From NCBI GenBank assembly GCA_938048735.1, contig CALIUM010000005.1, forward strand, positions 5,525-69,524: DNA of 64,000 bases. Direction: 5' to 3'. A program made the translations under genes and the position numbers. Shown here in pieces: positions 1,183-55,478 of this stretch. Position 1 is the stretch's first letter. Every line of letters starts with the position of its first letter. The DNA is from an uncultured archaeon. Its GTDB lineage: Archaea; Thermoproteota; Bathyarchaeia; TCS64. The notes below the pieces were generated by a model. That model made no database searches. It had not been told where the DNA came from and saw nothing but the letters and a program-made list of their open reading frames with translations.

Positions 1183-1286
1183 GCGGGGGTTCCCGAGACT
1201 GGCCAAAGGGGCGAGACTTAAGATCCTGAGCTCGGGAAGAGATCTCGTGGCTTAGGCCTTCGTGGGTTCGAGTCCCACCCCCCGCA
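1183..1286 (+). tRNA. tRNA-Leu (anticodon UAA) with a ~19 nt intron after position 37
   Basis: Acceptor GCGGGGG/CCCCCGC, anticodon stem CGAGA/UCUCG, loop CUUAAG|intron|A, long variable arm UGGCUUAGGCCUUC (class II), T-arm GUGGG-UUCGAGU-CCCAC, discriminator A. The intron sits at the canonical archaeal 37/38 site. Confidence 0.8.
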
Positions 1287-1464
1287 CTAGGGCTATGGGA
1301 GATAATAAACCTAGTGACAACGGATAAAACCATTACTATTTAGAGTCTAACTCGTTTAATTCTTATGTTTACATTCTTTTTGTATAAAAATCAATCAATT
1401 TTTATTTGTGCTTAAGAGTTTTGCTGCTAAAAATATGTGCGTACCTGAAATTAGGCCACTTTCT

Positions 1465-9447: not shown

Positions 9448-9451
9448 GAGG

Positions 9452-14060: not shown

Positions 14061-14867
14061 TTACCACCATAAGGCCCGATATGGACCGAGGGGGGCTTTA
14101 GGGTTTAGTTTCCACACACCCAGCCGTCTGTTCAAATTTGTGTCAAGTTCATCAATTTTTGCAGCCTTATACTTGGTAACCTCTTTTGACATTACCCTTT
14201 TATCCGTCATGGCGGCTGCTCTAGCATAAATTCCCTCATTCAGAAGATATTTCAAAGCTTTGAAAGGGAGCTCGTAGAATTCCCCAATTGCACCAGTTCT
14301 TTGTGTAAAGCCTTCTGGAGTTGCAGCCTTGAAAGAAACTCTAACATAAATGAAACTCGAAAATTGTGATAGTCTTCTTACATAATCCCTATCTGAGCCG
14401 AGAAGTATACCATTAGTTTCGAGATAAAAAGGATACTTCGTTTTCCCAACATGTTCCAAGACTGAAAGAAGATGCTCCTTTCCTAATGTGGGTTCGCACC
14501 CAGATAATCTAAGCTTTTTCACTTTCCGAATAACCCTTCTCCAATAATCAGAATAAATTATCCCTTCTTCAGCTGCCTTGAAAAGATTTTGAGCAGCCTG
14601 CTTAGGAGAATAGAATTTTCCAAACTTTTCAGGAAAGTCTCCTGACCAGTTTGACCAGCAGTAAATGCACCTTAAACAACAGCCAGCTGCATAGCCTGTT
14701 GCAATCCCTTTATAAACCGGAACAGAATAAAAACCAGTGTATTTCCTTTCAAGCCCTTCATCTCCCTGCCTAGTTACAATCTTCTCAGTCTCCTTTGCTA
14801 GCTCCAATGGGTTGAAAGGCTTAAAACCTCGAGTTAAGAACCTTTGGTATTCATTCATCAAATCCAA
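14061..14867 (-). CDS. radical SAM protein, PflA/NrdG-type activase-like
   Basis: CxxxCxxC motif in context GCCLRCIYCWSNW and a SAM-binding SGCEPTL motif. Codon usage is markedly lower-GC than the flanking genes. Confidence 0.7.
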   Translation of the reverse strand: MDLMNEYQRFLTRGFKPFNPLELAKETEKIVTRQGDEGLERKYTGFYSVPVYKGIATGYAAGCCLRCIYCWSNWSGDFPEKFGKFYSPKQAAQNLFKAAEEGIIYSDYWRRVIRKVKKLRLSGCEPTLGKEHLLSVLEHVGKTKYPFYLETNGILLGSDRDYVRRLSQFSSFIYVRVSFKAATPEGFTQRTGAIGEFYELPFKALKYLLNEGIYARAAAMTDKRVMSKEVTKYKAAKIDELDTNLNRRLGVWKLNPKAPLGPYRALWW

Positions 14868-28585: not shown

Positions 28586-30376
28586 ATGGAGAGGCTGATC
28601 CACAACGGCGTACTGGTACCTACAAAGTATGAGGCGAAGGGGCTTAGAGTCTGGGTTAGGGGGGTTGAGGTCAGGCTGACCTCAGAGCAGGAGGAGATGG
28701 CTGTGGCATGGGCTAGGAAGATAGGGACGCCATACGTCGAGGATCCGGTCTTCGCCGGTAACTTTCATCGAGATTTCTCCAAGAAGCTTGGGATAGAGGT
28801 CAAGCCCGGAGATGTTGACTACTCAGAGGTCCTCAGAGAGGTCATGAGAGAGAGGGAGTACAGGGCAAGACTGACCAGGGAGGAGAGGAAGAGGCTGGCT
28901 GAGGAGAGGAGGAGAATTAGGGAGGAGAGAAAGGAGTTATACGGCTACGCCTGGGTCGACGGGATAAGGATGGAGGTAGGGAACTACACAGTTGAGCCCA
29001 GCTCCATATTCATGGGCCGGGGAAACCATCCGAGGCGTGGATCCTGGAAGGAGGGGCCGAAGGAGGAGGATATAGAACTCAATCTCTCCCCAGATGCCCC
29101 GAGGCCTAAGGGCAACTGGAAGGCCATAGTGTGGGATCCCGACGCTATGTGGATAGCCAGGTGGAGGGATAAGCTGAGCGGGAGGATGAAGTATGTCTGG
29201 CTCTCAGAATCCTCCTACCTCAAGCAGAGGAGGGAGCTGGAGAAGTTCGAGAAGGCTAGAGAGCTGGGAAACAACATAGAGAGGGTTAAGAGGCACATCT
29301 TTGAGAACCTCTCCTCTAAGGATCCTAAGAGGAGGAAGACCGCGACTGTATGCTACCTTATAGACGCCCTGAAGATACGGGTCGGGGACGAGAAGGATGA
29401 GGATGAAGCCGACACGGTGGGAGCCTCAACCCTTAGGCCGGAGCACTTAACCTTCAACGAGGATGGCACGGTAACCTTCGACTTCCTCGGGAAGGACTCA
29501 ATTCGCCACCTCATCACCGCTAGGTTGCCTGAGGAGGTTGTGAGGAACCTTAAGGAGTTCATGGCCGAGGCACGATCAACCATATTCGAGGGCGTGGACT
29601 CTGAGAGGGTCAGCGAGTTTCTAAACGAGGTCCACCAAGGTCTATCGGCCAAGGTCTTCAGGACCTTCTACGCAACGAGCGCTGTAGAGAAAGAATTGAT
29701 GAGGAGGAGAGTTAAGGAGAATGATCCTAAATATTTAAAAAGATATATTGCAATTATGGCGAATCTTGAGGCTGCAAAAATATGTAACCATAAAAGGGCA
29801 ATACCTAAGAACTGGGAATCATCTCTAAAGAAAAAAGTTGAAAAAATTGAAAAATTAAAAATTGAATATAAAAAATTGGAAAAAAATCTGAAAGAAAAAA
29901 TGAAGGAAATAGATGTGCGCTTTAAAGATAGATTATATAAAAAAGTGAAGGGTTTAAATGAAGAAAGAAGAAAGATGGATGAAATAAAAGAAATTATAGA
30001 AAAGAGAAGGATTGAAGGAAAATCTATAGATAGCTTAAAGGAGAGGTTAATTAAAAAGAAGAATAATGTTGAAAATTTAAGGAATAGTATAAGGAAAATA
30101 AAAAATGAATGGGGGGTTTATAGAAAAAGAGTGATTAATAGATTGGATGAATTGAAGGCCAGATATCGAAAGAAGCTTGAGGAGCTCAGAATCCAAGTGG
30201 AGATCCAGAGGGAGACCCGCGACTACAACCTAGGTACATCCCTTAAAAGTTACATAGATCCCCGGGTATACTATGAGTGGGGCGAGAGAATCGGATACAG
30301 CTGGAGAGAGTACTATCCTGCAACTCTCCAGAGAAAGTTCAGCTGGGTAGAGGCCCGGAAAACGCAGACCGGGTAG
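28586..30376 (+). CDS. eukaryote-type DNA topoisomerase IB
   Basis: The core aligns to human TOP1 with all catalytic residues present (R in ASTLRPEHL, K in FLGKDSIRH, R in AKVFRTFYA, H in KICNHKRA, Y in SLKSYIDPR). A Lys/Glu-rich coiled-coil linker precedes the Tyr domain. Confidence 0.85.
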   Translation: MERLIHNGVLVPTKYEAKGLRVWVRGVEVRLTSEQEEMAVAWARKIGTPYVEDPVFAGNFHRDFSKKLGIEVKPGDVDYSEVLREVMREREYRARLTREERKRLAEERRRIREERKELYGYAWVDGIRMEVGNYTVEPSSIFMGRGNHPRRGSWKEGPKEEDIELNLSPDAPRPKGNWKAIVWDPDAMWIARWRDKLSGRMKYVWLSESSYLKQRRELEKFEKARELGNNIERVKRHIFENLSSKDPKRRKTATVCYLIDALKIRVGDEKDEDEADTVGASTLRPEHLTFNEDGTVTFDFLGKDSIRHLITARLPEEVVRNLKEFMAEARSTIFEGVDSERVSEFLNEVHQGLSAKVFRTFYATSAVEKELMRRRVKENDPKYLKRYIAIMANLEAAKICNHKRAIPKNWESSLKKKVEKIEKLKIEYKKLEKNLKEKMKEIDVRFKDRLYKKVKGLNEERRKMDEIKEIIEKRRIEGKSIDSLKERLIKKKNNVENLRNSIRKIKNEWGVYRKRVINRLDELKARYRKKLEELRIQVEIQRETRDYNLGTSLKSYIDPRVYYEWGERIGYSWREYYPATLQRKFSWVEARKTQTG

Positions 30377-40171: not shown

Positions 40172-41134
40172 TTGTTGATGGTGATGACCCTACATATATT
40201 CCCAGAGGATAGAGTTCACTTCTATTGGGATAGAGAACTTGAGCCTGTAATAAGGATATCTCCAGGAGACACAGTCTCCTACGAGCTGAGGGAGGTCTCA
40301 GACGGCCAGATAAATCCCACGTCCACCCTCGAGGTATTGAGGAAGCTAGATTGGGAGAGGGTTTACCCCCTCGCGGGGCCGGTATATGTGGAGGGGGCAG
40401 AGGTTGGAGACGCCCTTGAGGTGGAGGTACTAGATATACATCCCGGGCCCTGGGGCTGGTCCGCCATAATACCCGGCTTCGGCCTATTGGAGGATGAGTT
40501 CAGGGAGCCGAGGCTGAAGATATGGGACCTCTCTCATGGAGACCACGCCTACTTCAGGGAGGACATAAAGATCCCCCTTGAACCATTCTGCGGGACCATG
40601 GGCGTGGCTCCCAGAGAGACTGGAAAGAGAGCCGTAATGCCCCCGGGGATGCATGGAGGTAATATGGATATCAAGCACCTAACACGGGGCTCCAGGCTCC
40701 TCCTTCCGGTATGGGTGGAGGGGGCATTATTCTCCGTTGGGGATCCCCACGCGGCTCAGGGTGATGGGGAGGTGTGCGTCACAGGAATAGAGGCCCCGAT
40801 GCACCTCAGCCTGAGATTTAACCTAAGGAAGGGGCTGAGGCTGGATGCTCCTCAGTATATAACCTCTCCACGCCTTAGATGCGGGGATGAGGGGACTAGA
40901 TATCATTCAACCATCGGCATAGGCCCAGACCTCCTGGGGGCCTCCAGAGACGCGATCCGCCGAATGGTGAACTTAATAGCTGAGAGGTGGAAGATGGAGC
41001 GCTGGGAGGCCTACATACTATGCAGCGTTGTAGTGGATCTGAGGATAAGCGAGGTGGTGGACAAGCCCAACTGGATAGTCTCAGCCCATCTACCCTTATC
41101 CATATTTCAAGAAGACATGTGTCGAGAAGGATGA
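40172..41134 (+). CDS. acetamidase/formamidase family protein
   Basis: FmdA_AmdA-like sequence over the full 320 aa. Confidence 0.7.
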   Translation: MLMVMTLHIFPEDRVHFYWDRELEPVIRISPGDTVSYELREVSDGQINPTSTLEVLRKLDWERVYPLAGPVYVEGAEVGDALEVEVLDIHPGPWGWSAIIPGFGLLEDEFREPRLKIWDLSHGDHAYFREDIKIPLEPFCGTMGVAPRETGKRAVMPPGMHGGNMDIKHLTRGSRLLLPVWVEGALFSVGDPHAAQGDGEVCVTGIEAPMHLSLRFNLRKGLRLDAPQYITSPRLRCGDEGTRYHSTIGIGPDLLGASRDAIRRMVNLIAERWKMERWEAYILCSVVVDLRISEVVDKPNWIVSAHLPLSIFQEDMCREG

Positions 41135-41284
41135 CTAAAAAAGCCCAAAAACCGCTCCATCGTTTATAAAACTAAGAATTTATTTATAATTGAATATTTA
41201 ATTGATTTCGGATCCATGATCATGTCAGATAGAGGTTATATGCTGAGTATGATGGTAAAGGTTAAATAGGTATTTAAAATCTAA

Positions 41285-41698
41285 ATGATGAGAAAAGGCA
41301 TGTCTAGAGCTAGAGCCAGAGACGAGGAGATCCTTCAGGTTCTTAAAGATATAAAGGCTTTACTGGAGCCCAAACCACCGCCTCCACCCCCTCCTCCACC
41401 CCCACCTCCCCCCAAGGGCCTTTGGAACGAGTTTCTGGACTTCGTATCAAAGTACAAGGTTATGGGAATGGCCGTGGCCTTCATCCTAGGCTTATATCTG
41501 GGCACCCTTGTACAGGCACTAGTTAATGACCTGATCATGCCTATAATAACGATAATTCTACCAGGTGTTGAATGGGAAGCATTTGTGCTGGGACCGTTCC
41601 GCATCGGGCACTTCATAGGAGCCTTAATAACCTTCCTACTGGTAGCCTTCGTGGTCTTCATGTTAGTCAAGATAACAAAAAAATGGGGGATCGAATAA
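41285..41698 (+). CDS. mscL: large-conductance mechanosensitive channel with polyproline N-terminal extension
   Basis: The S1/TM1/TM2 region (LWNEFLDFVSKYKVMGMAVAFILG...DLIMPII) aligns with MscL. It is preceded by a 44 aa extension that includes 13 consecutive prolines. Confidence 0.7.
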   Translation: MMRKGMSRARARDEEILQVLKDIKALLEPKPPPPPPPPPPPPPKGLWNEFLDFVSKYKVMGMAVAFILGLYLGTLVQALVNDLIMPIITIILPGVEWEAFVLGPFRIGHFIGALITFLLVAFVVFMLVKITKKWGIE

Positions 41699-42322
41699 CA
41701 TCCAAATTTATTTCAAATCATAATTTTGAAATCATGTTTAATGACTAGATTAGAATTGAAACGTTAGACTACAATAACACTTTTTGGAATATATTCTTAA
41801 GTTATTAGGCGATAATTTTAAGTTTTCATCTTATAATATGATTTATCTAGGAAAAAACTTGTTAGAAAAATGATTCAATTTCTTATTTCTAAAATTTAGT
41901 TCTGAATGGATTTGGACATTAATTTACTTTAATATAAATTCTAAAAGTTCTATTTTTATGATTTTGAGGAATTCTTCCATAATAATCCTAATGATTTTAC
42001 TATTTATTTGTTTTTTAATTTTTCTATTTATTGATGTGTAAGCATTATTATGAGTTTAGGGTAAAGACAAGTAATGTAAAGGTTTGGAATATTTGACAAT
42101 CATTCACCGCATCCCTCTAGCAACGGGGGGTGTAACTAAAGCTATTCTATAACCCCTCCTCCAGCGCCAACTATGCCCAAAAAGACCTTTGTCATTCCTC
42201 TAAAATAATTAGACTTATTAAAGGTTTGGGATATTTGAAGCGGAGGCCAAGACTCTTTATTCGAAAGGTTTAAATATAGCGGTTTCTGCCGATTCTGGAT
42301 TTGAAGAGGAGGATTAAAAATC

Positions 42323-42727
42323 ATGGAAAATGAAATGAAAAAGGAAGTTAAAATACTTGAAGACTGTATGAAAGTTGCTGAACATGAAAATCTTATTTGG
42401 GTTTGTGATGGAGCTGCAAACGTGGGTCAAGTGGGCCAGGCAATTGGTGTTTTGCTCTCAAACTTGGATAAGGGACGAATGTGTTGTACAGTAGCCGTAG
42501 CAGCTGGCTCTAAGCGTCATCTAGAGATAGCTGAAAAAGCGAAAAAGAACATAGTTATAAATGGGTGCGCAAATAGATGCGCTTCCAAAGTTTTAGAGAA
42601 TGCTGGAAAGAAAATAAACTATGAAATAATCATATCTAAGTATTTGCAAAAGGTTCCCACACTTGACATCTATATGGGTGACGCGAAGAAGATAGCCCAA
42701 ATAATAATTGAAGAAGCCAAGCTTTAA
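42323..42727 (+). CDS. DGC-domain putative zinc-binding protein
   Basis: 134 aa with conserved WVCDGAANVGQ and NGCANRCASK Cys/Gly motifs. The gene is AT-rich. Confidence 0.5.
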   Translation: MENEMKKEVKILEDCMKVAEHENLIWVCDGAANVGQVGQAIGVLLSNLDKGRMCCTVAVAAGSKRHLEIAEKAKKNIVINGCANRCASKVLENAGKKINYEIIISKYLQKVPTLDIYMGDAKKIAQIIIEEAKL

Positions 42728-43360
42728 GAATGAAAAAAGCAGGATACGTAAAGGCAGCTAATTTATAAAGTGCCCATATTTCTCTATTTTATATAAAGTG
42801 TGGTTCTGTTGACTGTTCTTATAACCCCTTACATAGCAAATAAAATACGATAATACGATAAATCTTTATTTCAGGTGAGTTTAGCTACTTCATGCTCTGT
42901 TGTAGGTGGGACTTTTTAGCAAAAGGTATCAAAGTTGATATTAATGGGACCACGAAACCCATGGCGGTTGTAAATTGGATGGTTATTCCCCATATATTGA
43001 ATAGTGTTACTAAAAAAGGAGATATAGACATTGTCTAAATCCCCCCTCTTTTCATAATTAGCAATCCAACAGCAGTTATAAATCACTGAACCTCCAACAC
43101 AAAGAAATCTTATTTATAGTCAGAATAATCACTGGAGCAACTTCCACATCCAAAAGACCACCTGTCATAATTGCTCTAAGGTATCCCAAGACAATTCTTC
43201 GCATATTTTTAAACTCATCTTCATCAATGTTCAGGGAATTCGTGCCCCCTAGTCTTAACATGAGAATTTAAACCTTCTTCCTAGATGAAAACCTAACTAA
43301 AAACTAAAAAGACAATAATTTGAGATTATTTAGGGAAAACCGCCAAAAAAGGCAATCTTG

Positions 43361-43398
43361 AGTAGTGCAGTGGTGGGATTAGAACCCACGGAGGACTA
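43361..43398 (-). repeat. partial tRNA-Leu 3'-half copy (att-like direct repeat)
   Basis: agtgc..ggtgggattagaacccacggaggact matches 27/28 nt of the 3' half (variable arm + T-arm) of tRNA-Leu(CAG) located 3.6 kb away, in the same orientation. Confidence 0.5.
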
Positions 43399-43528
43399 AA
43401 ACTTTGAAAAATTATGTCGCATATAACTCTACAAAAACAAGATTTAAAGAACTTCGCCATACCTTTTTCAAAGTGTTAGTTCCTATATGTTCTATTAACA
43501 ATGACTAAAGGAATGAAGTTTGCATGTT

Positions 43529-46500
43529 TTAGGGGCTATTCTGGGGGCTTTTTCGAAGTAGGAGTTCTTGGTATTCCGAGTTTATTTTTCCGTATTTTTC
43601 TTTGACGGTTCTGCTGATTTTATGCCAGTCTTGGATTATTTTTGGCCATAGCTCGCTGGTTATTAGCTGTTTTGTCACGTATTCTTTTAATGATTTTTCC
43701 CGTTTAATTGTTCTTTGGCGCCAGTCAAAGCTTATGAGTCCTGCACGTTTCAAATGTTGAATTGTGTGACCTATTTGGTCGTAATTAAGTGGGTGATCCA
43801 TGCTTATTGCTAAGTCTTCTAGGATGGAGTCAATTGTTATTTGGTCTTCTGCGCGCAGACAGATGTTGGCTATAACTGTTTGGATGATCCTCGTAGTCTT
43901 GGTAAGGTATATCCCAATCCTCTTTGGCGGGATAAGGGTTTGTTCTAGGCGGTAGCTATACCTCCTGTAAAACCAGCTTTTGATGATTTCGGCCAGTGTC
44001 AAATAGGTGCCTAGAATCGCGGCTAGGGCTATGAAGAAAGTTGCTGGAGGCTTTACAAATCTGAAAATTTCTCCTAATGGCGTGTAAGGAATTATCAACG
44101 CGAATGTTATTATTGCTATGCTGCTGAGGAGCACAAGTCGACTCGGCTTGCTTTTCCAGAAAGGCAACCTTTTTGTTCTAATGACAAAGATTATAAGAGT
44201 CTGTGAAGTTAGGGATTCGATGAACCAAGCGGTTTGAAACAGTTGCTCATAAGCGTTAAAGATAAAAAGCATTATAAAGAATGTTAGAAAGTCGAAGATG
44301 GAGCTGACAGGTCCGAGGCACACCATGAACTGTCTAATGAAGTGTATATCCCACCTTTTAGGCTTTTCAATGTATTCTTGGTCAACCTCGTCCGTGGATA
44401 TTGTTGACTGCGAAAAGTCATAGAGCAAATTGTTGAGCAATATCTGTATGGGTAGCATGGGCAGGAAGGGCAGAAACAATGATGCGCCGGCAACGCTGAA
44501 CATGTTTCCGAAGTTTGAGCTCACGCTCATCATGATATACTTCATAGTGTTGCCGAAGGTTTTCCTACCATCCAAAACACCGTCATAAAGCACTCTCAAA
44601 TCGTTCTGCAAAAGAATTATGTCAGCGGATTCCTTTGCAACATCAACAGCGTTTTCCACAGATATGCCAATGTCCGCGCTTTTTAGGGATGGCGCATCGT
44701 TAATCCCATCCCCTAGAAACCCAACAACGTGTCCATTACCCTTTAAAGCATTCATTATTCTGTCCTTCTGGGCTGGTGTAACCCTGCAGAACACATTTGC
44801 TTCTTCGACAACTCTTGCAAGGGCGTCATCATGCATTTGGGCAATCTCGCTTCCAGTGACTATTCCTTTTATATCAAAGCCGAGGTGTTCGCAAACCTTC
44901 CTTGTTACCAGTTCATTATCACCTGTGAGAATTTTCAGCTCTATGCTAGCATTTTTCAGAAGCTGCAAGGTTTCTCTCGCTGTTTCTTTAGGAGGGTCAA
45001 GAAAAGCTACGAATCCCAAAAACACCAGCTCTTTCTCGTCATTTGCTGTATATGTTGGCTTGTCCTCTCTTAAGCGCTTGTAGGCTACGGCTAGGACCCT
45101 ATAGCCTTCAGCACTAAGCTCAACATATTTCTGCTCAATTTTTCTGCGTACTTCATCTGTTATGTCGACTATAACCTCTCCAACCTCATAGAAGGAGCAA
45201 ATCTTGGCAACCTCTTCTGGAGCCCCCTTTGTGACCATGAACCGTTGACTCTGATATTCAACAACTATGGAGAGCCTTCTACGAACAAAATCAAAAGGCA
45301 CCTCATCAATCTTCTTATAATTTTCAACATCTACCTCTCTAAATCTTAGTATAGCCTCGTCTAAGGGGCTTTTAATTCCAGTTTGGTAGTGGCTGTTGAG
45401 GTAGGAATAAAGCAGAACCTTATCGTTTTCGTCGCCGTTAAGATCCACATGTAGGACAAGCTTTATCCGGTTTTCCGTCAAAGTCCCAGTTTTATCCGTG
45501 CATAGAATATCCATACTTCCAAAATCTTGTATCGCTGTCAAGCGCTTCACAATCACGTCCTTCTTAGCCATCGACACTGCTCCTTTAGAGAGGTTTACTG
45601 TAATTATCATCGGCAAAAGTTCCGGCGTTAATCCCACAGTCAAAGCTACAGCGAAGAGAAGCGAATCAAGCACGCTTCGCATGTAAAGGGCATTAATGAA
45701 GAACACAAATATGACTAGCAGAAAAGTTACTTGCATTATCATGTAACCAAAACTTCGAATACCCCTCTGGAACTCCGTCTCAACCTCTCTTTCCACAAGC
45801 TTCCCCGCAATTTTCCCATACTCTGTTAGGCTACCAGTTTTCATGACAACAGCAGTTGCTGTCCCGCTCACAACAGAAGTGCCCATAAAAAGATAGTTGC
45901 TCCACTCCGTTATAGACGGGTCATAGGATTTCAGCGGCAAGCCAGTCTTCTCAACTGGAAAAGATTCACCAGTCAATGCAGATTGGTTCACGAATAAGTC
46001 TTTTGCACTTATAACTCGGGCGTCTGCAGGCACAAGGTCGCCTGCTGAAAGGAATATAATGTCTCCGGGGACAACCTCTGCAAGCCTAACCTCTCTTTTG
46101 GTGCCATCCCTCAAAACGGTGGCCGTTGTCGCCACCCTCTGCTTCAGCATTTCAGCCGCCCTTTCAGCCTTAGATTCTTGATAAAAGCCCAAGACTGCGC
46201 TGACCATCACTATAACAAATATAATAGCTGTGTTCGCAACTTCACCAAAAAAGCCTGAAATCAGCCCAGCGATAAGGAGAATTATTATCAACGGACTTTT
46301 GAAATGGGAAAGGAACTCGATGATGACTGCTCTCCTCTTTTTTCTAACAAGCTCATTATAGCCAAAAAATTCAAGACGCCTTTCTGCTTCCTCAGAGGAA
46401 AGCCCATCCATTGAAGACTTCAAGCGTGAAAGAAGCTCTTCAACAGGCGAAGTTAAAACTTCTTCAGCGCTCGGCAGAGCCCAGCCTAAAACTTCGCCAA

Positions 46501-46543
46501 TACTTGACCTTTCTAAATCCTGAACCACCATCATTCCCACCAT
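43529..46543 (-). CDS. mgtA: Mg2+-importing P-type ATPase (MgtA family) with ~150 aa C-terminal extension
   Basis: P-type ATPase motifs (TGES, DKTGTLT, TGDN, GDGxNDxP) and MgtA-like N-terminus. 1004 aa versus ~900 aa typical. The gene is AT-rich. Confidence 0.85.
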   Translation of the reverse strand: MVGMMVVQDLERSSIGEVLGWALPSAEEVLTSPVEELLSRLKSSMDGLSSEEAERRLEFFGYNELVRKKRRAVIIEFLSHFKSPLIIILLIAGLISGFFGEVANTAIIFVIVMVSAVLGFYQESKAERAAEMLKQRVATTATVLRDGTKREVRLAEVVPGDIIFLSAGDLVPADARVISAKDLFVNQSALTGESFPVEKTGLPLKSYDPSITEWSNYLFMGTSVVSGTATAVVMKTGSLTEYGKIAGKLVEREVETEFQRGIRSFGYMIMQVTFLLVIFVFFINALYMRSVLDSLLFAVALTVGLTPELLPMIITVNLSKGAVSMAKKDVIVKRLTAIQDFGSMDILCTDKTGTLTENRIKLVLHVDLNGDENDKVLLYSYLNSHYQTGIKSPLDEAILRFREVDVENYKKIDEVPFDFVRRRLSIVVEYQSQRFMVTKGAPEEVAKICSFYEVGEVIVDITDEVRRKIEQKYVELSAEGYRVLAVAYKRLREDKPTYTANDEKELVFLGFVAFLDPPKETARETLQLLKNASIELKILTGDNELVTRKVCEHLGFDIKGIVTGSEIAQMHDDALARVVEEANVFCRVTPAQKDRIMNALKGNGHVVGFLGDGINDAPSLKSADIGISVENAVDVAKESADIILLQNDLRVLYDGVLDGRKTFGNTMKYIMMSVSSNFGNMFSVAGASLFLPFLPMLPIQILLNNLLYDFSQSTISTDEVDQEYIEKPKRWDIHFIRQFMVCLGPVSSIFDFLTFFIMLFIFNAYEQLFQTAWFIESLTSQTLIIFVIRTKRLPFWKSKPSRLVLLSSIAIITFALIIPYTPLGEIFRFVKPPATFFIALAAILGTYLTLAEIIKSWFYRRYSYRLEQTLIPPKRIGIYLTKTTRIIQTVIANICLRAEDQITIDSILEDLAISMDHPLNYDQIGHTIQHLKRAGLISFDWRQRTIKREKSLKEYVTKQLITSELWPKIIQDWHKISRTVKEKYGKINSEYQELLLRKSPQNSP

Positions 46544-46952
46544 CCATTCTCGCCGAACAACCTCCAGGGGCTGGACTCTTACATTCTTGCAAAGATACCA
46601 TCATAAAATTCTTTCCTCAACTCCATAGTTAAAACTGACAATAGTTTCTGTTAGGAGACACTAATGGAAAAGTGCTCCTTGAGAAGCAACGCTGTAATAT
46701 GCGGATCAGAATTCTAACCCATAGGTGAAATCCACTTCTCATCGTTACTTCCCGTAAGAGAAGATCTAACTCACAAAGAAAGGAAAAGTGCACCATGCAA
46801 TGTAGATTGTAAACCATGCACACGATACGCTAATGGAAAATGCATCGGATGCCCAACAACAATCAATTTAGAGGAACACTCTAAGAAAATGGAAGAGTGG
46901 AAAAATGAGCTTCTTTAGCCAAAATAACCTCGTATAAGGCTTTATTTTTTTA

Positions 46953-47035
46953 GTGCGGGGGGTGGGATTCGAACCCACGGAGGACTCATCCAGCAGGTCC
47001 TGAACCTGCCCCCTTTGGCCCCTCGGGAACCCCCG
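46953..47035 (-). tRNA. tRNA-Leu (anticodon CAG)
   Basis: Acceptor GCGGGGG/CCCCCGC, anticodon arm GCAGG-UUCAGGA-CCUGC, long variable arm, T-arm GUGGG-UUCGAAU-CCCAC, discriminator A. No intron. Confidence 0.85.
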
Positions 47036-47047
47036 CCTTTTAGGATT

Positions 47048-47452
47048 CTAGCCCTGCTTCTCTATGTATTTTTTGTACGCCTCGCTGTCCATCAGCTCTT
47101 TGAGTTCGGTCTCTAGGTTCTTGGGTTTAACCTTTGCTATCCATCCCTTTCCGTAGGGGTCTTGGTTTATGAGCTCCGGGCTGTTGGAGAGTTCCTCGTT
47201 TACCTCTAGGATGACCCCTGATATCGGGGAGTATATGTCGCTCACGGCCTTCACGGACTCCACGGTCCCCATGACCTCCATCCGGCTCACCTCCCTCCCA
47301 ACCTCTGGGAGCTCGACGTAGACCAGCTCGTGGAGCTGGTCCTGGGCGTAGTCGCTTATTCCTATGAGGACTGTGCCGTTATCTACCACCTTGACCCACT
47401 CATGCTCCTTTGAGTAGCGGAGTTCGCTTGGAAGCTTGTAATCCTTCTTCAA
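47048..47452 (-). CDS. gcvH: glycine cleavage system H protein
   Basis: Lipoyl-lysine motif ESVKAVSD, 134 aa. Confidence 0.85.
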   Translation of the reverse strand: MKKDYKLPSELRYSKEHEWVKVVDNGTVLIGISDYAQDQLHELVYVELPEVGREVSRMEVMGTVESVKAVSDIYSPISGVILEVNEELSNSPELINQDPYGKGWIAKVKPKNLETELKELMDSEAYKKYIEKQG

Positions 47453-48588
47453 CCTTTATCCCTCTTCCATCCATACCTAGATTCATTATAGAAGGGGTGG
47501 AACTTAACTATTTTTCCCTTCAGGAGCCTATCCCTTATCTTTATCCTCACGGGTGTATTGAGCTTCGAGTATTCGGGTGGGACATATCCCATGGCTATTC
47601 CCTTGTCAAGGGTTGGGCTGTATCCTCCGCTTGTTACGACACCTATCATCGCCTCATTCCAGATCTCATACCCCTTCCTCGGGATCCCCCTCTCCTCCAG
47701 GGCTATGCCGACCCTGGTTCTCCTCACCCCCTCCCTGGCCACCCTCATCAGGGCCTCCCGCCCTATGAAGTCCCTCCCCTTCTCAAGCTTTACAACCCAT
47801 CTTAGGCGGGCCTCGAAGGGGTTGATCTCCTCATCTATATCATTTCCGTAGAGGCACAAGCCAGCCTCCAGGCGTAGGGTATCTCTGGCTCCCAATCCGC
47901 AGGGCTTTATCCCGAATCTCTCCCCAGCCTCCAACAGCATCTCCCAAAATCTCACAGCCTTCCAGGGCTCCTGGAGGGGTGTGTCTAAGATGAAGAGCTC
48001 GAAGCCATCCTCCCCGGTGTACCCAGTCCTCGCCGCCATTATATCCAACCCCTGAATCCTATACCTTGATATCTGGAACCTCTTCAGTTCCGCCACCTCG
48101 CCGCAGAGCTTCTTTAGGGTTTCCTCGGCCTTCGGCCCCTGCAGGGAGAACATGGCCACCTGGTCTGAGACATCTTGGATGCTCACATCAAACCCCTGAG
48201 AGTTTCTCTCAAGCCATCTTAGGTCCTTCTCCCTATTTGAGGCGTTATAGACCAAGAAGAACTCATCGTCTGATAGTCGGTATGTTATGAGATCGTCTAT
48301 TATCCCGCCCCTCTCGTTGCACATGAGGGTGTATAGTCCCTTCATCGGTTCAAGGGTTGAGACTTCGCCGGTGAGCATATAGTCAAGAAACTCCTCCGCT
48401 CTCTCTCCCTTCACGAGCGTCCTCCCCATGTGGGTTACATCGAAGAGGCCCACGGAGTTCCTCACAGCTTGATGCTCTGGTATTACACCCTCATACCATA
48501 CAGGCATCTCGAACCCCGCGAAATCTATGAGTTTGCCATGCTCCCTATGATACTGGTATAGGTGGGTTCTCCTCATGGACAAACACAT
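47449..48588 (-). CDS. gcvT: glycine cleavage system T protein (aminomethyltransferase)
   Basis: GcvT N-terminal pattern (TxLYxxH...FAGxxMPVxY...SVGLFDVTHMG), 379 aa, ATGA-coupled to gcvH. Confidence 0.85.
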   Translation of the reverse strand: MCLSMRRTHLYQYHREHGKLIDFAGFEMPVWYEGVIPEHQAVRNSVGLFDVTHMGRTLVKGERAEEFLDYMLTGEVSTLEPMKGLYTLMCNERGGIIDDLITYRLSDDEFFLVYNASNREKDLRWLERNSQGFDVSIQDVSDQVAMFSLQGPKAEETLKKLCGEVAELKRFQISRYRIQGLDIMAARTGYTGEDGFELFILDTPLQEPWKAVRFWEMLLEAGERFGIKPCGLGARDTLRLEAGLCLYGNDIDEEINPFEARLRWVVKLEKGRDFIGREALMRVAREGVRRTRVGIALEERGIPRKGYEIWNEAMIGVVTSGGYSPTLDKGIAMGYVPPEYSKLNTPVRIKIRDRLLKGKIVKFHPFYNESRYGWKRDKG

Positions 48589-48634
48589 TCCTCCAAGTGA
48601 TCAGTTGGGAATATTATAAATCGCTGTCGGAGTT

Positions 48635-48832
48635 TTACTTATTATTTGATTTGGAAGCATTCGAGCCTCCATCCCAGAGAACAACCTCCACATTCTCCGG
48701 TGAGAAGGAGAGCTTCCTGTTACATCTAGGGCACCTGGAGTTGAACTTCCTTATAATCTCATATGGTGACTTTATGATCTCCCCCTCATACAGAACATAG
48801 CCGCAATCTGAGCAGATGATCTGCTGAGGCAT
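48635..48832 (-). CDS. small zinc-ribbon protein (hypothetical)
   Basis: 65 aa with two CxxC pairs (CSDCG...CPRCN). Confidence 0.4.
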   Translation of the reverse strand: MPQQIICSDCGYVLYEGEIIKSPYEIIRKFNSRCPRCNRKLSFSPENVEVVLWDGGSNASKSNNK

Positions 48833-48928
48833 ATGCTCCTTTATGCTTCAGAATTAATTAAACCTTATCCGCTCTCACCAATCGAAAGGGATTTTAAATC
48901 GTGAGGGTTACAACTTAGAAGGCTCGAG

Positions 48929-49336
48929 ATGTCCACCAGGTTGAGGAGATTTCTCAGGAGATCCAGGTGGAGGCCCGGAACCACAGAAACCCTGATCGCC
49001 GTACTAGTGGTGGCCTTCACGGCCTTCATAGCGGGAGGGGGAATCTACAACATAATCGATAAGCCTCCAACCATCATAGGTTTTTCAGGGGGCTATGTGG
49101 CCGTTAGGGGATTGCGGGACGAGCAGACCCTCATGGAGAGCGCCCTCAGCATGCTCTTCCTGATCCTGACCTTCATTGGGCTCCTGACCTCCTATAGGAG
49201 CACCCGGGTCGTATATGATATGAGGAGGGCCTCCATGACCCTATTCCTTGGCATCGCCCTGATCGCCCTAGGCCTCTCAGGGAGCTTCTACCTCCTGAGC
49301 CTGAAGCAGATGGTCTTAAGGCAGCTTGGATATTGA
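48929..49336 (+). CDS. membrane protein (hypothetical, ~3 TM)
   Basis: 135 aa with a basic N-terminus followed by hydrophobic helices. Confidence 0.4.
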   Translation: MSTRLRRFLRRSRWRPGTTETLIAVLVVAFTAFIAGGGIYNIIDKPPTIIGFSGGYVAVRGLRDEQTLMESALSMLFLILTFIGLLTSYRSTRVVYDMRRASMTLFLGIALIALGLSGSFYLLSLKQMVLRQLGY

Positions 49337-49376
49337 GAAAATTATGTAGCTAATAGTAGTTGAACGGTGGGATGGG

Positions 49377-50279
49377 TTGAAGAGGGTAGGTTTCATAGGT
49401 CTGGGGATTATGGGGAGCGGGATGTCCATGAACATCCTGAGAGCTGGATTCCCAATAACAGTCTGGAACAGAACCCCTTCAAAGATGAGGCCCCTTATAG
49501 AGGCTGGAGCCTCAGGCGCATCATCGCCTAAGGAGGTGGCTGAGCGCTCAGATGTCATCATCGACATAGTCACAGACTCACCGGACGTCGAGGAGGTCAT
49601 CCTAGGCCCTAATGGGGTTATCCATGGAGCTAGGCCGGGATCCATAGTAGTTGACATGAGTACAATCTCCCCGATTGTGACGAGGCGTATAGCCTCGGAG
49701 CTCGAGAAGAGGGGGGTGAGGATGCTCGACGCCCCTGTGAGCGGTGGGGATATAGGAGCTAGGGAGGGGACCCTGAGCATAATGGTCGGCGGGGATGAGG
49801 ATGCCTTCCAGGAGTGCCTCCCCATATTCAAAGCCATGGGGAAGACCATAATCTACGTGGGGGATCATGGAATGGGACAGATGGTCAAGCTCTGCAACCA
49901 GATCCTGGTTGGGATAAACATGCTAGGGGTGGCCGAGGCCCTGATGTTCGCATCCAAGGCTGGAGTCGACCTTGAGAGAGCCTTCACAGCCATATCTGGA
50001 GGTGCGGCGAGCAGCTGGCAGCTCATAAATAATGGGGCCAAGCTACTGAAGGGCGACTTGGAGCCCGGATTCAAGGTGAGCCACTACCTAAAGGATCTCA
50101 GGCTGATAATGGAGGCCTCAGCTGAGATGAAGCTCCCCATGCTCGGAACAGGACTGGTATACCAGCTCTTCAGGGCGTTGGACGCGGAGGGGTTGGGGGA
50201 GAAGGGAACCCAGGCCATCATTAGGGTGATAGAGAAGCTCGCGGGATGCAGCCTTCTGAATGAGAAGACCAAAATTTGA
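49377..50279 (+). CDS. NAD-dependent beta-hydroxyacid dehydrogenase (3-hydroxyisobutyrate dehydrogenase family)
   Basis: Rossmann motif GFIGLGIMGSGMSMN and family-typical DAPVSGG, 300 aa. Confidence 0.8.
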   Translation: MKRVGFIGLGIMGSGMSMNILRAGFPITVWNRTPSKMRPLIEAGASGASSPKEVAERSDVIIDIVTDSPDVEEVILGPNGVIHGARPGSIVVDMSTISPIVTRRIASELEKRGVRMLDAPVSGGDIGAREGTLSIMVGGDEDAFQECLPIFKAMGKTIIYVGDHGMGQMVKLCNQILVGINMLGVAEALMFASKAGVDLERAFTAISGGAASSWQLINNGAKLLKGDLEPGFKVSHYLKDLRLIMEASAEMKLPMLGTGLVYQLFRALDAEGLGEKGTQAIIRVIEKLAGCSLLNEKTKI

Positions 50280-50294
50280 TGAGCATGTTTTTAA

Positions 50295-52495: not shown

Positions 52496-52658
52496 TTAGC
52501 CCACCTATTCAAGGCCAGCCAATAACTATTTAATGTTATCCAATCTTTCCTCCATAAATTAAGTATCATTTGAAGATGTCATCGTATAACTTGAAATAAT
52601 AATTAAGTCCAGAGTCTTGACACTCCCATGGCTTAAGCCTGTGGGATTCTCGGTTTTT

Positions 52659-52847
52659 CTAGGCATGACCTTTCATCATACCGAACTCGGGCTGTGTCAA
52701 ATCAGCCCCTGCTATGGACGTATAGCCCATAGCCCGCTTAAGGATGTTCAAGGCTCCGTTATAGTCCGCATGACATGAGTAGCCGCAGTTTAAGCATCTA
52801 AAGGAGCCTCCGACTCGAAGCCCCTCATACCCGCTGATCCTCGCCAT
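52659..52847 (-). pseudogene. C-terminal remnant of an IS200/IS605-family TnpB (OrfB) transposase-associated nuclease
   Basis: 62 aa with the TnpB zinc-finger/RuvC-III signature FRCLNCGYSCHADYNGALNIL. An in-frame stop lies immediately upstream and no N-terminal part is detectable. Confidence 0.5.
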
Positions 52848-53156
52848 TTTATCATAAACTCATGACTTTTGCTTAAGCATTTATTAGAAGACTGAGCTTG
52901 TAGCGATTAACAGGGAGGCCCTCTGGAGGGATCCACTCCTTGTTTAGAGGGTCAAGCCATAGATGCATACCTAAGCCTATGTCGTCAATGTTTTCGGGCT
53001 TAATCTTTATTTGGTTCGGGAATGTTTCCCCCGTTGTCGAACCCAGATTAAGTATATGGCTCGCAGATCCATACAAGTTACATTCCTTCAACTATTCATA
53101 TGTTATAACGAAAAGGTTATATATTAACATATATTAACATTTTTGGAGAAATAACA

Positions 53157-53435
53157 ATGTCTGATGATGATATTGCCTTAAAAGAGGCTGTGGAAGAGGC
53201 GTTACGTGGCGTTCTAGATCCCGAGCTTGGGGCTAGCTTGATGGATTTGGGGATGATCAAAAGTGTAACTGTTAAGGATGGTATCGCGACAATCGAGATG
53301 ATGTTGACAACACCCTTCTGCCCGCTAGCGATGCAATTAACATCCGATGTGATGAGGGCTGCTGAGGGAGTTAAAGGTATAGTGAGGGCGGAGGTCAAAA
53401 TCGTAGAGTTCGGCTTTTCTCCTTTTCAAAGATAG
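53157..53435 (+). CDS. DUF59/MIP18-family Fe-S cluster assembly protein (SufT-like)
   Basis: 92 aa. The motif DPELGxSLxDLGMI...TPFCP is characteristic of DUF59. Confidence 0.6.
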   Translation: MSDDDIALKEAVEEALRGVLDPELGASLMDLGMIKSVTVKDGIATIEMMLTTPFCPLAMQLTSDVMRAAEGVKGIVRAEVKIVEFGFSPFQR

Positions 53436-54207
53436 TATTGACGTTTCGGAAAATGCTGTTAGTTCCAGGAACGCGCGTTAAAAAAGGGGATCATCTGCAT
53501 GGAATGAAAGATGTACAAATAATATGTAACAGGTTAGAATTACAGAATAAAATTATTCTGGGTTTTGGTGTAGGGGATGGTAGTTCAAGTTTTCTTCTTC
53601 TTAACGGAAAAGGGGTCTTTTGATATCTCTTGATCATGATATAAAAATACCCTAAAAGGGTTGAAATGGGAAACGATACTAAAAGGTCATGCTAATTCAG
53701 AGGATGGAAGGTATTTCTTTCAAAAGAGATTCGTTGGATATGGTTTTTCCCAGATATTTTATGCATTGTGTTGTGGCTTATGTTAGATATTTTCAGGAGT
53801 TGGAGCGAGTCATCGATCCGGAAGCGGAAATCGTATTAATAGACCTTTGTCTTAATGGTAAAAGATTTTTGGACAAGGGTCATTTTGGCAAGACTTCATC
53901 CATATTGTGTTGTGGCATACTCCCAAGATATTAACTAATATATAAAATTAATTGGGATCGAAATTCGTCATTAAAGTCGTTTAAAGCTAAATACTATATC
54001 AAACCATAAGCTTAAGAGTTATATTCATAACAAATTGAAATTCATTATTAAAAGAAAATGTTAACATAATAAAAGGAAAAAGAAACTTCTATATTTTATA
54101 TATCAATCATTAAGATAAGTGAAGTAGAAAAGTCAAAATGAGAACAAGAAAGAGGTGTCACGAAACTGTCAAGTGTGATGCCAAAAGAACTTGCTCTCTA
54201 ACAAAGT

Positions 54208-55233
54208 TTATGAGCCCTTTGAACTTGTAAAGCGATGCTTTGTTTTCGCCGCTATCTTTACGAACGCTAGCATGGATGGCACCTCCCAGAGTGGACCTAC
54301 TGCCGTGGCAAGAGCTGCGCCTGAGCCCACACCGAAGACTGTTATGGCCGTGGCGATCGCGACTTCAAATTGTGTTCCTGAGCTGATGAAGGCGATGGTT
54401 ACGGCATCTCTATATTGGAAACCGAGAAACCAGGGTATGATGTAAAAAAGCGAAGCCATTAGGAAGAAGTGAGCTAGTAAAGGAGCCGATATCAAGCCAA
54501 CCAAAAGGGGCTGCTCTGCAATTATCTCACCCTTTAAAGAAAATAGAACTATAATGGTTACAAGTAGCGCTACGACTGCTATATTACCTATAATCGGTTG
54601 AAACCTTACTTTAAACCAGATTTCTCCCCTCTTCTTAAATAAAATCCATCTTGTAGTCTGACCTAAGGCTAACGGCAAACCGACAAAGAGAATGACGCTT
54701 TTAGCTATAGGATCTATAGGAATTGGAATGCCGCCTACACCCAAGTATAAGGCTGCTAAGGGAGTGTAAAGTATGAGCGTTGACAAGGCGTTGATGGCGG
54801 TAATTACTACACCTTTGGCGACATCCCCTCCAGCCAGAAGGATCCAGAATAGGACCATGCCTGTGCAAGGCGCTATACCGAGGAGGATTACGCCAGCTGT
54901 AAACTGAGGATAGCTGTTAAGGAAGAGGCGGGCGAGGAGTGTCATGAGGGCTGGAGCCACCACCCAGTTGCCAACCAACGTGAGGATTGCTGGTTTAGGA
55001 GACTTGGCTGCTTTAACCAATTCCTTAAATTCTATGCTCGCCATGGTGGGATACATTATGAAAAAAAGAGCAACACCCATTGGAATCGAGATACCGCTAA
55101 CTTGAAGCTGTTCAATCCATACACCCAACATTGGGGCGAGCTTCCCTAGAAGGAGGCCCAAGACCATTGACATGATAACCCATACAGTCGTGTACTTCTC
55201 TAATTTCCCAAGGGTTGGACGGGACTGCATCAA
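54208..55233 (-). CDS. arsB: arsenite efflux transporter ACR3
   Basis: 10-TM BART-fold permease with the ACR3 conserved LGIAPCTGMV cysteine motif, 341 aa. Confidence 0.8.
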   Translation of the reverse strand: MMQSRPTLGKLEKYTTVWVIMSMVLGLLLGKLAPMLGVWIEQLQVSGISIPMGVALFFIMYPTMASIEFKELVKAAKSPKPAILTLVGNWVVAPALMTLLARLFLNSYPQFTAGVILLGIAPCTGMVLFWILLAGGDVAKGVVITAINALSTLILYTPLAALYLGVGGIPIPIDPIAKSVILFVGLPLALGQTTRWILFKKRGEIWFKVRFQPIIGNIAVVALLVTIIVLFSLKGEIIAEQPLLVGLISAPLLAHFFLMASLFYIIPWFLGFQYRDAVTIAFISSGTQFEVAIATAITVFGVGSGAALATAVGPLWEVPSMLAFVKIAAKTKHRFTSSKGS

Positions 55234-55329
55234 GCCTGTGCCTTCACTCTCTTTTATTTTCCACTAGCTAAAGTAGGATTTTTATGAGATCATATGCATA
55301 AAGGGCGGTTTTTATATTTATTTATTAAA

Positions 55330-55402
55330 AGCCCCGGGCGGGATTCGAACCCGCGGCCAACAACTTACGAGGCTGCCGCTCTGGCCACTGAGCTACCGGG
55401 GC
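55330..55402 (-). tRNA. tRNA-Thr (anticodon CGU)
   Basis: Acceptor GCCCCGG/CCGGGGC, D-arm GCUC-AGUGGCCA-GAGC, anticodon loop CUCGUAA, T-arm GCGGG-UUCGAAU-CCCGC, discriminator U, 73 nt. Confidence 0.85.
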
Positions 55403-55478
55403 CCTCAACTATTCCTGGGGATAAGCCCATCTTTAAGAATATATCGCGGCCTTGAGGGGTGTGGGTCCGCGTTTTGGG

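Follow-up and report, generated by a model that had tools for sequence, protein, structure and literature searches.

How did 5 kb of AT-rich DNA come to lie against the 3' end of an intact tRNA-Leu(CAG) gene, in a region where no integrase, transposase or conjugation gene can be recognized? The question is posed by the window analyzed here, a 64,000-nt stretch of a metagenome-assembled contig (CALIUM010000005.1) from an uncultured Bathyarchaeia-like archaeon of hot springs, in which the interval 41716-46952 (the island) separates the host genes mscL and gcvH. The island is probably laterally acquired DNA that accumulated at the tRNA 3' end through successive integrations, with a recombinase that has since been lost or that acted in trans. 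It consists of two modules that differ in composition and origin, segment A (43398-46952, 42.4% guanine plus cytosine, GC) next to the tRNA and segment B (41716-43361, 33.2% GC) beyond it, and a direct repeat brackets the tRNA-proximal module only. The initial annotation had suggested either a decayed integrative element or cargo left after loss of the element; this is supported by an empty site in a relative, by the composition, and by a tRNA-derived direct repeat at 43362-43397 that the annotation had not seen.

The compositional island at 41716-46952 is confirmed as a real feature. The sharp drop between mscL and gcvH that had been described is borne out by the numbers, with 39.6% GC compared to 51.7% in the rest of the window; this is the minimum of 588 sliding windows of island size, and among those that do not overlap the island the minimum is 46.0%. 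Bins of 1 kb between 41 and 47 kb have 36-44% GC versus about 52% elsewhere, and in 200-nt windows the minimum of 21% is found at 41.7-42.1 kb. Codon usage deviates quantitatively as well: GC content at third codon positions (GC3) is 0.64 +/- 0.07 for 39 reference genes versus 0.34 for the DGC-domain gene (z -4.1) and 0.46 for the ATPase gene (z -2.5) of the island. Logan contig L122, which was assembled independently, matches the window at 100% identity over 41950-43540, from segment B across the tRNA fragment into the 3' part of the ATPase gene.

The comparison with related genomes that the initial annotation had proposed, a search for mscL followed directly by tRNA-Leu and gcvH, revealed such a site in a Candidatus Bathyarchaeia contig of 60.5 kb (L120; JAWCKD010000010.1, part of a metagenome-assembled genome, MAG), which was found through its 88%-identical formamidase-family protein and is collinear with window positions 30.4-56.9 kb at 84-89% nucleotide identity. 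By blastn, window 41242-41715 (mscL plus 17 nt) aligns with L120 12899-13359 and window 46953-50280 (tRNA-Leu, gcvH, gcvT and onward) with L120 13469-16794; between these blocks L120 has 109 bp and the window 5,237 bp. L120 thus represents the empty site, in the order mscL, 109 bp, tRNA-Leu(CAG), gcvH. The right boundary is base-exact, as homology to L120 restarts with the very last nucleotide of the tRNA 3' end (46953); the tRNA differs from its L120 orthologue by a single base. The left boundary, 41716, is 17 nt past the mscL stop codon. The earlier claim that the island ends exactly at the tRNA 3' end therefore stands, but the end coordinate given with it, 47035, takes in the tRNA and hence host DNA. 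The 109-bp spacer of L120 has no significant match in the island (score 31, null maximum 35), and retention of the ancestral spacer inside it was rejected on this basis.

The features of the island and its flanks, among which are all the genes listed by the initial annotation (mscL, an AT-rich DGC gene, orphan open reading frames, an mgtA-like gene, tRNA-Leu and gcvH), are as follows (ORF, open reading frame; aa, amino acids).

41285-41698, plus strand: mscL, host gene of the left flank (PF01741, TIGR00220); collinearity with L120 reaches 41715
41716-46952: the whole island, 5,237 bp, 39.6% GC, absent from L120
41716-42100: AT-rich distal end of segment B, about 21% GC, without an ORF and with only weak tandem repeats
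42323-42727, plus strand: solitary gene for a DGC-domain protein (putative zinc-binding protein; PF08859, E 8.7e-22), 38% GC
42885-43261, minus strand: overlapping orphan ORFs of 48, 56 and 61 aa, of doubtful coding status
43262-43361, minus strand: X, a non-coding stretch of 100 nt that directly follows the tRNA fragment and ends in a BRE/TATA-like box, AAGGTTTAAAT
43362-43397, minus strand: degenerate repeat of the 3'-terminal ~33 nt of tRNA-Leu(CAG) plus 3 trailer bases (repeat family D3)
43395-43480: inverted repeat I5, with arms of 17-22 nt and a 52-nt spacer, one arm overlapping the start of the tRNA fragment
43529-46543, minus strand: intact gene, 43.5% GC, for a P-type ATPase of 1004 aa and of the MgtA type (type IIIB)
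43532-43969, minus strand: C-terminal extension of the ATPase, 146 aa; the NCBIfam/Pfam core ends at residue 863
46544-46671, minus strand: conserved 5' region of the ATPase cassette, 128 nt, with the BRE/TATA-like promoter box GAAAGAATTTTATGA
46664-46919, plus strand: small Cys-rich ORF of ~84 codons with one in-frame TAA, filling the 281 nt from the cassette to the tRNA
46953-47036, minus strand: intact tRNA-Leu(CAG) (ARAGORN; Rfam RF00005, 47.7 bits)
47048-47452, minus strand: gcvH, host gene of the right flank (PF01597), collinear with L120, L082, L083 and L084

The tRNA-derived repeat lies at the junction of the two modules. The fragment at 43362-43397 spans the 3' strand of the variable arm, the T arm and the 3' strand of the acceptor; it lies 3.59 kb from the intact gene and points in the same direction, as expected of an attR site. 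Compared with the tRNA end (46953-46988), 25 of 26 core positions are identical, a match not seen in any of 100 shuffles, and the Smith-Waterman score is 50 against a background of 16-20 over both strands of the whole island, in which this is the sole such copy. The tRNA-Leu 3' sequence consists of GGGTTCGAATCCCACCCCCCGCA plus variable-arm bases, and in the fragment these latter bases match the host's own tRNA-Leu(CAG). The copy has drifted by four substitutions and one indel. Rfam reports no tRNA at 43362-43397, and no tRNA 5' half adjoins the fragment. The fragment is read as a putative displaced att site. Segment A accordingly possesses an att-like pair of repeats and the distal boundary at 41716 none; the same whole-island search, carried out for a second tRNA-Leu fragment at that boundary, gave only the background of 16-20. 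The inverted repeat at 43395-43480 (fold z-score -3.5) may fold at the 3' end of the ATPase mRNA, or it may belong to the recombination site.

The cargo of segment A is the ATPase. The protein exceeds the cut-off of the magnesium-translocating equivalog TIGR01524 (994 bits vs. 610.75, residues 28-863), its translation shows the DKTGT, TGDN and GDGINDAP motifs, and the ratio of nonsynonymous to synonymous substitution rates (omega) against homologs is 0.12-0.18. Judged from its sequence, the ATPase is a functional enzyme under purifying selection, with a predicted specificity for Mg2+. Homologs with 70-93% amino acid identity are encoded mostly in hot-spring MAGs labelled as Bathyarchaeia, Brockarchaeota, Desulfurococcaceae, Nitrososphaeria, Methanomethylicota and Terraquivivens, with flanks representing about 30 unrelated contexts. 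Nucleotide similarity to these loci (83-92%) is limited to 43490-46671, i.e. the gene, its promoter and about 40 nt downstream, and ends at 46671 on the tRNA side. A foreign affinity is evident here, as the closest ATPases are found in non-syntenic genomes: synonymous divergence (dS) between the window copy and its homologs is 0.225 for L002, a Brockarchaeota MAG, and 0.354 for L004, and the dS of five backbone genes between the window and L120 is higher, 0.38-0.74. In most Bathyarchaeia loci the GC content of the ATPase gene equals that of its flanks (42-46%), and in the window and a few other hosts of 48-52% GC it is 4-8 points lower. The 43.5% GC of the window gene thus resembles the flanks of most Bathyarchaeia/Bathyarchaeota loci (mostly about 42-47%) and not the backbone of the window. 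Exact-protein look-ups found neither the GcvH nor the ATPase of the window on record.

The C-terminal extension of the ATPase is missing from bacterial MgtA, and plasmid-borne MgtA aligns over residues 24-863 only. AlphaFold2 predicts a winged helix (pLDDT 79.8), for which the best Foldseek matches are MarR, IclR, PadR and the cullin WHB domain, all weak (E >= 0.025). The extension matches only 46 clusters among 1.84 billion representatives, mostly short fragments, and evolves faster than the ATPase core (omega 0.3-0.5 vs. 0.10-0.15). In two Desulfurococcaceae MAGs (L026, L033) the ATPase homolog (83% nucleotide identity) is truncated at about 890 aa, with the C-terminal domain separated off; a tRNA-Leu(CAG) gene lies 4.4 kb downstream of the ATPase in the opposite orientation. 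Upstream of the ATPase, a palindrome (AACAGAAACTGTT; 46630-46660, minus strand) is located about 35 nt before the promoter box and is a candidate regulator-binding site. It occurs in a subset of loci only (the window, L033, L011, L013 and L065). Several loci that encode the winged-helix domain lack the palindrome, and co-occurrence therefore gives no support to a link between the two. The Cys-rich ORF between the cassette and the tRNA has no match in Pfam, PHROGs or by tblastn and is likely a pseudogene, given its in-frame stop codon.

Segment B has other affinities. Its DGC gene has homologs with 75-91% amino acid identity in many hot-spring archaea, and nucleotide similarity to the closest locus (L123) is restricted to 42308-42742. 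Elsewhere the gene follows DUF1805 and clusters with CMD, ferredoxin-domain and molybdopterin-oxidoreductase genes and with ArsR-Usp-ACR3; the clusters in L129 and L130 also contain ArsR and an SBF-family transporter. A linked origin of the DGC gene and the ATPase was rejected, as none of the 80 ATPase loci fetched (flanks of up to 10 kb) encodes a DGC homolog. The stretch X is 81% identical over 89 nt (E 7e-17, tRNA part excluded) to a sequence in a Terraquivivens MAG (L038), where it is located between tRNA-Leu(TAG) and the ATPase gene. X thus ties segment B to a tRNA-Leu-associated ATPase locus of another lineage. The orphan ORFs at 42885-43261 have no Pfam or PHROG family and no tblastn match in the fetched loci, save for the identical Logan contig. 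For the AT-rich stretch at 41716-42100 homolog searches, including one of PLSDB with segment B, were empty. The initial annotation had called 620 bp at this end ORF-free, which is nearly right, but the stretch includes a 60-aa ORF (42142-42324) without support. A structured RNA was rejected for the island, since Rfam at E <= 1 gives the tRNA only, and the stretch flanked by a 20-nt repeat pair at 42077/42219 folds no better than shuffled sequences.

The search for mobility genes covered the island ORFs together with 42728-43528 in all six frames, 46544-46952 in the frame of the pseudo-ORF, and the ORF at 42142-42324, with Pfam matches considered up to E <= 1. Neither the island ORFs nor the scanned translations matched any integrase/recombinase, transposase, conjugation or viral family, in keeping with the initial annotation, which had noted no integrase, transposase or conjugation gene. 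PHROGs likewise gave no match for island ORFs or scanned frames, and tblastn with the integrase fragment of an ATPase locus described below (L003) found nothing, so that all three approaches to integrase remnants were empty. Two ORFs cross the att sites (43326-43460, 44 aa; 46868-46978, 36 aa); of these the scan covered the former, which, like the frames covering it, has no family match. An insertion sequence or composite transposon was rejected because there is no transposase and there are no terminal inverted repeats at 41716/46952. With respect to a viral origin, scans of IMG/VR with the ATPase and the core of X returned no relatives. As to a plasmid origin, segment B has no DNA match in PLSDB, and plasmid MgtA is only 51-53% identical and bacterial.

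The ATPase loci of other genomes show how the gene is placed elsewhere. In the Terraquivivens locus the order is tRNA-Leu(TAG), the homolog of X, the ATPase gene, and a degenerate tRNA-end-like site at 7206-7236, which is the top-scoring such site in the locus, ~110-135 nt past the ATPase stop codon, and is only modestly significant; the arrangement mirrors segment A. The Methanomethylicota contig L027 has part of a tRNA-Leu 100 nt upstream of its ATPase gene and 2.1 kb from the intact tRNA. Overall, of about 30 distinct contexts there are about 8 in which the ATPase has the 3' end of a tRNA facing it at a distance of up to 2.5 kb, which by a rough estimate from tRNA density is several times chance.

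Three other MAGs (represented by L015, L037 and L051/L075, the last pair from one MAG) have the ATPase bracketed by diverged direct repeats of 91-163 nt that are 79-89% identical and are not tRNA-derived. The repeats measure 91-95 nt in L015 (2002-2091 and 5604-5692, within the 3' part of a gene for a 440-aa protein), 126 nt in L037 (8042-8099 and 13269-13326) and 163 nt in L051/L075, and their form suggests insertion by recombination through a duplicated target sequence. As a general hallmark of the ATPase cassette direct repeats were rejected, as they are confined to these loci and most others have none. In L001/L003 a truncated tyrosine-recombinase gene (9104-9481, minus strand) is found 520 bp upstream of an ATPase homolog with 89% identity; the fragment in L003 has 125 aa, comprises the C-terminal catalytic part only (PF00589, E 7.5e-8) and is the only trace of a recombinase seen beside this ATPase family.

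The sequence of events that would account for the island begins with an element carrying X as its tRNA-proximal arm, which would have integrated site-specifically into the 3' part of tRNA-Leu and whose remains would be segment B, i.e. X, the orphan ORFs, the DGC gene and the AT-rich DNA. A second DNA, with the ATPase cassette, would have integrated into the same tRNA, regenerating an intact gene and pushing the old tRNA 3' end outward, where it would persist as the decaying 36-nt fragment at 43362-43397. The recombinase gene(s) may have been deleted, or may never have been on the cassette and have acted in trans. What is left would be an island that has become fixed and can no longer move, and in which the useful cargo is the intact ATPase gene with its own promoter. 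Successive site-specific integrations at a tRNA are expected to leave just such an exact boundary, an intact tRNA, a directly repeated tRNA 3' part and a second module beyond that repeat. The insertion relative to L120, the exact tRNA boundary, the atypical composition, the tRNA-derived repeat, the lack of recombinase genes and the foreign affinities of the ATPase, the DGC gene and X are observations. As the recombinase is missing, we infer the integration step itself, and with it the action of an integrase, two events rather than one, and their order.

Several points weigh against this explanation. The island contains no integrase gene or recognizable fragment, so that the recombination mechanism is deduced from its footprint. 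The tRNA-derived repeat is short and 14% diverged, and segment B lacks a complete att pair, as there is no repeat at 41716, whether tRNA-derived or other. There is only one informative empty-site relative, and the ancestral junction is beyond reconstruction because the L120 spacer has no counterpart in the window. Furthermore, most ATPase homologs are ordinary chromosomal genes without flanking repeats, and the fetched loci of the closest ATPase copies (L002, L051/L075) share no genes with the window by which the distance between hosts could be gauged.

The main rival explanation dispenses with an integrase: the DNA would have been acquired by homologous or homology-facilitated illegitimate recombination, anchored at the conserved tRNA-Leu 3' end, and in one variant that end would be duplicated as well, by one crossover with a circular DNA. 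The tRNA-Leu 3' ends are near-identical across lineages (about 1 in 25 positions differing) and thus usable as a cross-lineage anchor, the absence of any recombinase remnant is as expected, and the long unrelated repeats in L015, L037 and L051/L075 fit Campbell-type recombination better than one site-specific att; a rearrangement in the relative L121, described below, also has its breakpoints at two tRNA-Leu genes. However, the duplication in the window is only ~36 nt, beginning in the variable arm and stopping shortly beyond the end of the acceptor, the extent typical of an integrase att site (PMC8371274), the island boundary is base-exact at the tRNA 3' end, and a truncated tyrosine-recombinase gene does lie beside the ATPase in L003. 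We regard acquisition without an integrase as unlikely. A further reading, which does involve integrases, concerns the ATPase itself: with its winged-helix-like domain and its own promoter, it may be a self-contained single-gene cassette exchanged among hot-spring archaea of several lineages and, like a cis-mobilisable element (see below), inserted repeatedly at tRNA 3' ends, especially those of tRNA-Leu, by integrases acting in trans. If this were true, the window (CAG), L038 (TAG) and L027 (TAG) would be three independent footprints and X a conserved element arm; we consider it unlikely.

The two other alternatives are less likely than acquisition without an integrase. In one, the region is ancestral, and L120 has lost it because it was deleted or because an older integrated element excised precisely; we hold this to be very improbable. 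This view draws on the single clean empty-site genome, on the 109-bp spacer, whose lack of relation to the window implies that L120 is not in a pristine ancestral state, and on an additional 1.95 kb that L120 carries between the formamidase gene and mscL. Such a loss is at odds with the strongly atypical GC and GC3, with an ATPase dS of 0.23-0.35 to non-syntenic copies compared to a backbone dS of 0.38-0.74 to L120, and with the absence of the island after mscL in L121 too; excision, moreover, still implies an integrative element and would change the timing, not the nature, of the feature. In the other, DNA of a lower-GC population was joined to the contig at a repeated tRNA sequence during assembly or binning. 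The source is a metagenome-assembled contig, related ATPase or DGC alleles exist in several populations of the same sample (ERZ6864471: L003/L123; other S1_Bin MAGs: L004, L051/L075), and the junctions at 41716 and 46952 are without independent verification. Yet both flanks are on one contig and collinear with L120, the identical stretch of the Logan contig includes the internal junction at the tRNA fragment, and uninterrupted identity in the tRNA repeat extends over no more than 16-17 bases, not enough to misguide an assembler, so that such an artefact is scarcely credible. Successive integrations at tRNA-Leu(CAG) accordingly remain the probable origin of the island.

The surroundings of the locus are changeable in the relatives as well. 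In the more distant L121 (76-82% nucleotide identity) the island is likewise absent after mscL, and the locus is rearranged: at L121 11256-11634 mscL is followed by the orthologue of the intron-containing tRNA-Leu(TAA) of the window and then by tRNA-Arg(CCT), and the same two tRNAs are 45 kb away in the window, in inverted orientation. The gene order suggests an inversion whose breakpoints fell at two tRNA-Leu genes with near-identical 3' ends. The tRNA-Leu(TAA) of the window (1183-1287, plus strand) has a 19-nt intron and was missed by ARAGORN with default settings; it was found by Rfam (40.5 bits) and by ARAGORN with intron search. The additional DNA of L120 (10947-12899 vs. window 41112-41242) carries genes for a DUF4332/HHH protein and an MS_channel protein and constitutes a further indel adjoining the island. 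Three metagenome contigs found through GcvT (L082, L083, L084) keep gcvT-gcvH-tRNA-Leu(CAG), and their similarity to the window ends exactly at the tRNA 3' end; L082, the closest of the three, has a different AT-rich sequence beyond the tRNA. The 3' flank of tRNA-Leu(CAG) is thus a variable spot, but as empty sites these contigs are too distant or too short to inform.

How the island relates to known systems can be stated from its structure. A review (PMC8371274) treats tRNA-linked genomic islands together with the 'gene capture' described for archaea (She et al., Nature 2001). The island is a tRNA-linked genomic island that lost its mobility genes, akin to such gene capture: it shares with these the insertion at a tRNA 3' end, the intact tRNA, the direct repeat of the tRNA 3' end, the atypical composition, the absence from a relative and the retention of cargo after loss of mobility. 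Of the usual marks of a tRNA-linked island, the intact tRNA boundary, the empty site in a relative and the deviant composition are all found here and the integrase is not. It differs in that there is no integrase or fragment thereof and that the repeat pair is present at the proximal module only, and, with respect to gene capture, in that the host is an uncultured Bathyarchaeia-like archaeon and not a member of the Sulfolobales or Thermococcales. SSV-type elements with 'suicidal' integrases target tRNA 3' ends in hyperthermophilic archaea and can be trapped after integration because the int gene is split (PMC7253208; PMC8371274). The target is the same here, but the int(N)/int(C) pseudogene halves over the att sites that define such elements were not found in the scanned translations, and by this defining trait the island is not an SSV-type element.

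Two bacterial systems are also similar in part. Cis-mobilisable elements (CIMEs) derive from integrative and conjugative elements (ICEs) and are known from Streptococcus thermophilus. Segment A formally resembles them as cargo with att-like repeats, without recombination genes of its own and in tandem with a second module at the same tRNA, but no cognate autonomous element or integrase was identified for it. Salmonella pathogenicity island 3 (SPI-3) is a low-GC island with mgtCB at the selC tRNA locus and without a functional integrase. The likeness, a functional parallel, is in the Mg2+-type P-type ATPase (MgtB in SPI-3) as cargo of a low-GC island beside a tRNA gene; in contrast to SPI-3, the host is an archaeon, mgtC is missing from the window, and the ATPase of the window has the additional C-terminal domain, predicted to be winged-helix-like.

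The window contains a second island of 2.8 kb (52516-55328, 41% GC), also absent from L120, which adjoins the 3' end of tRNA-Thr(CGT) (55329-55403, minus strand). The distal end of this island yielded no fragment of tRNA-Thr. Its features are the following.

52659-52847: C-terminal remnant of a TnpB-like protein, 62 aa
53157-53435: small DUF59/SUF-associated-like ORF
54208-55233: ACR3 arsenite-efflux gene (TIGR00832, 310 bits vs. a cut-off of 282.8)

Elsewhere in the window, a radical-SAM gene (14061-14867, minus strand) has 40.9% GC and a GC3 of 0.36 (z -3.9) and, judged from this composition, may be another acquired gene. MscL (41285-41698, plus strand) has an N-terminal extension with 13 consecutive prolines, and a gene for a eukaryotic-type topoisomerase IB (28586-30376, plus strand; PF01028, PF02919, PF14370) is present in L120 too.

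tRNA-linked islands without an integrase are well known in bacteria and archaea, and to our knowledge integrated elements have been little described in Bathyarchaeia-like archaea. No concept is changed by the present case, which is an ordinary and well-documented kind of gene acquisition at a tRNA gene; the side points worthy of note are how widely the ATPase is distributed, how it recurs beside tRNA 3' ends, and its rare, predicted winged-helix-like C-terminal domain. The locus is a clean case, resolved to the base, of genes gained next to a tRNA in an uncultured host of Bathyarchaeia-like affiliation. The gene for the Mg2+-type P-type ATPase belongs to the flexible gene pool of hot-spring archaeal communities, and the second island shows the same status for the ACR3 arsenite exporter.

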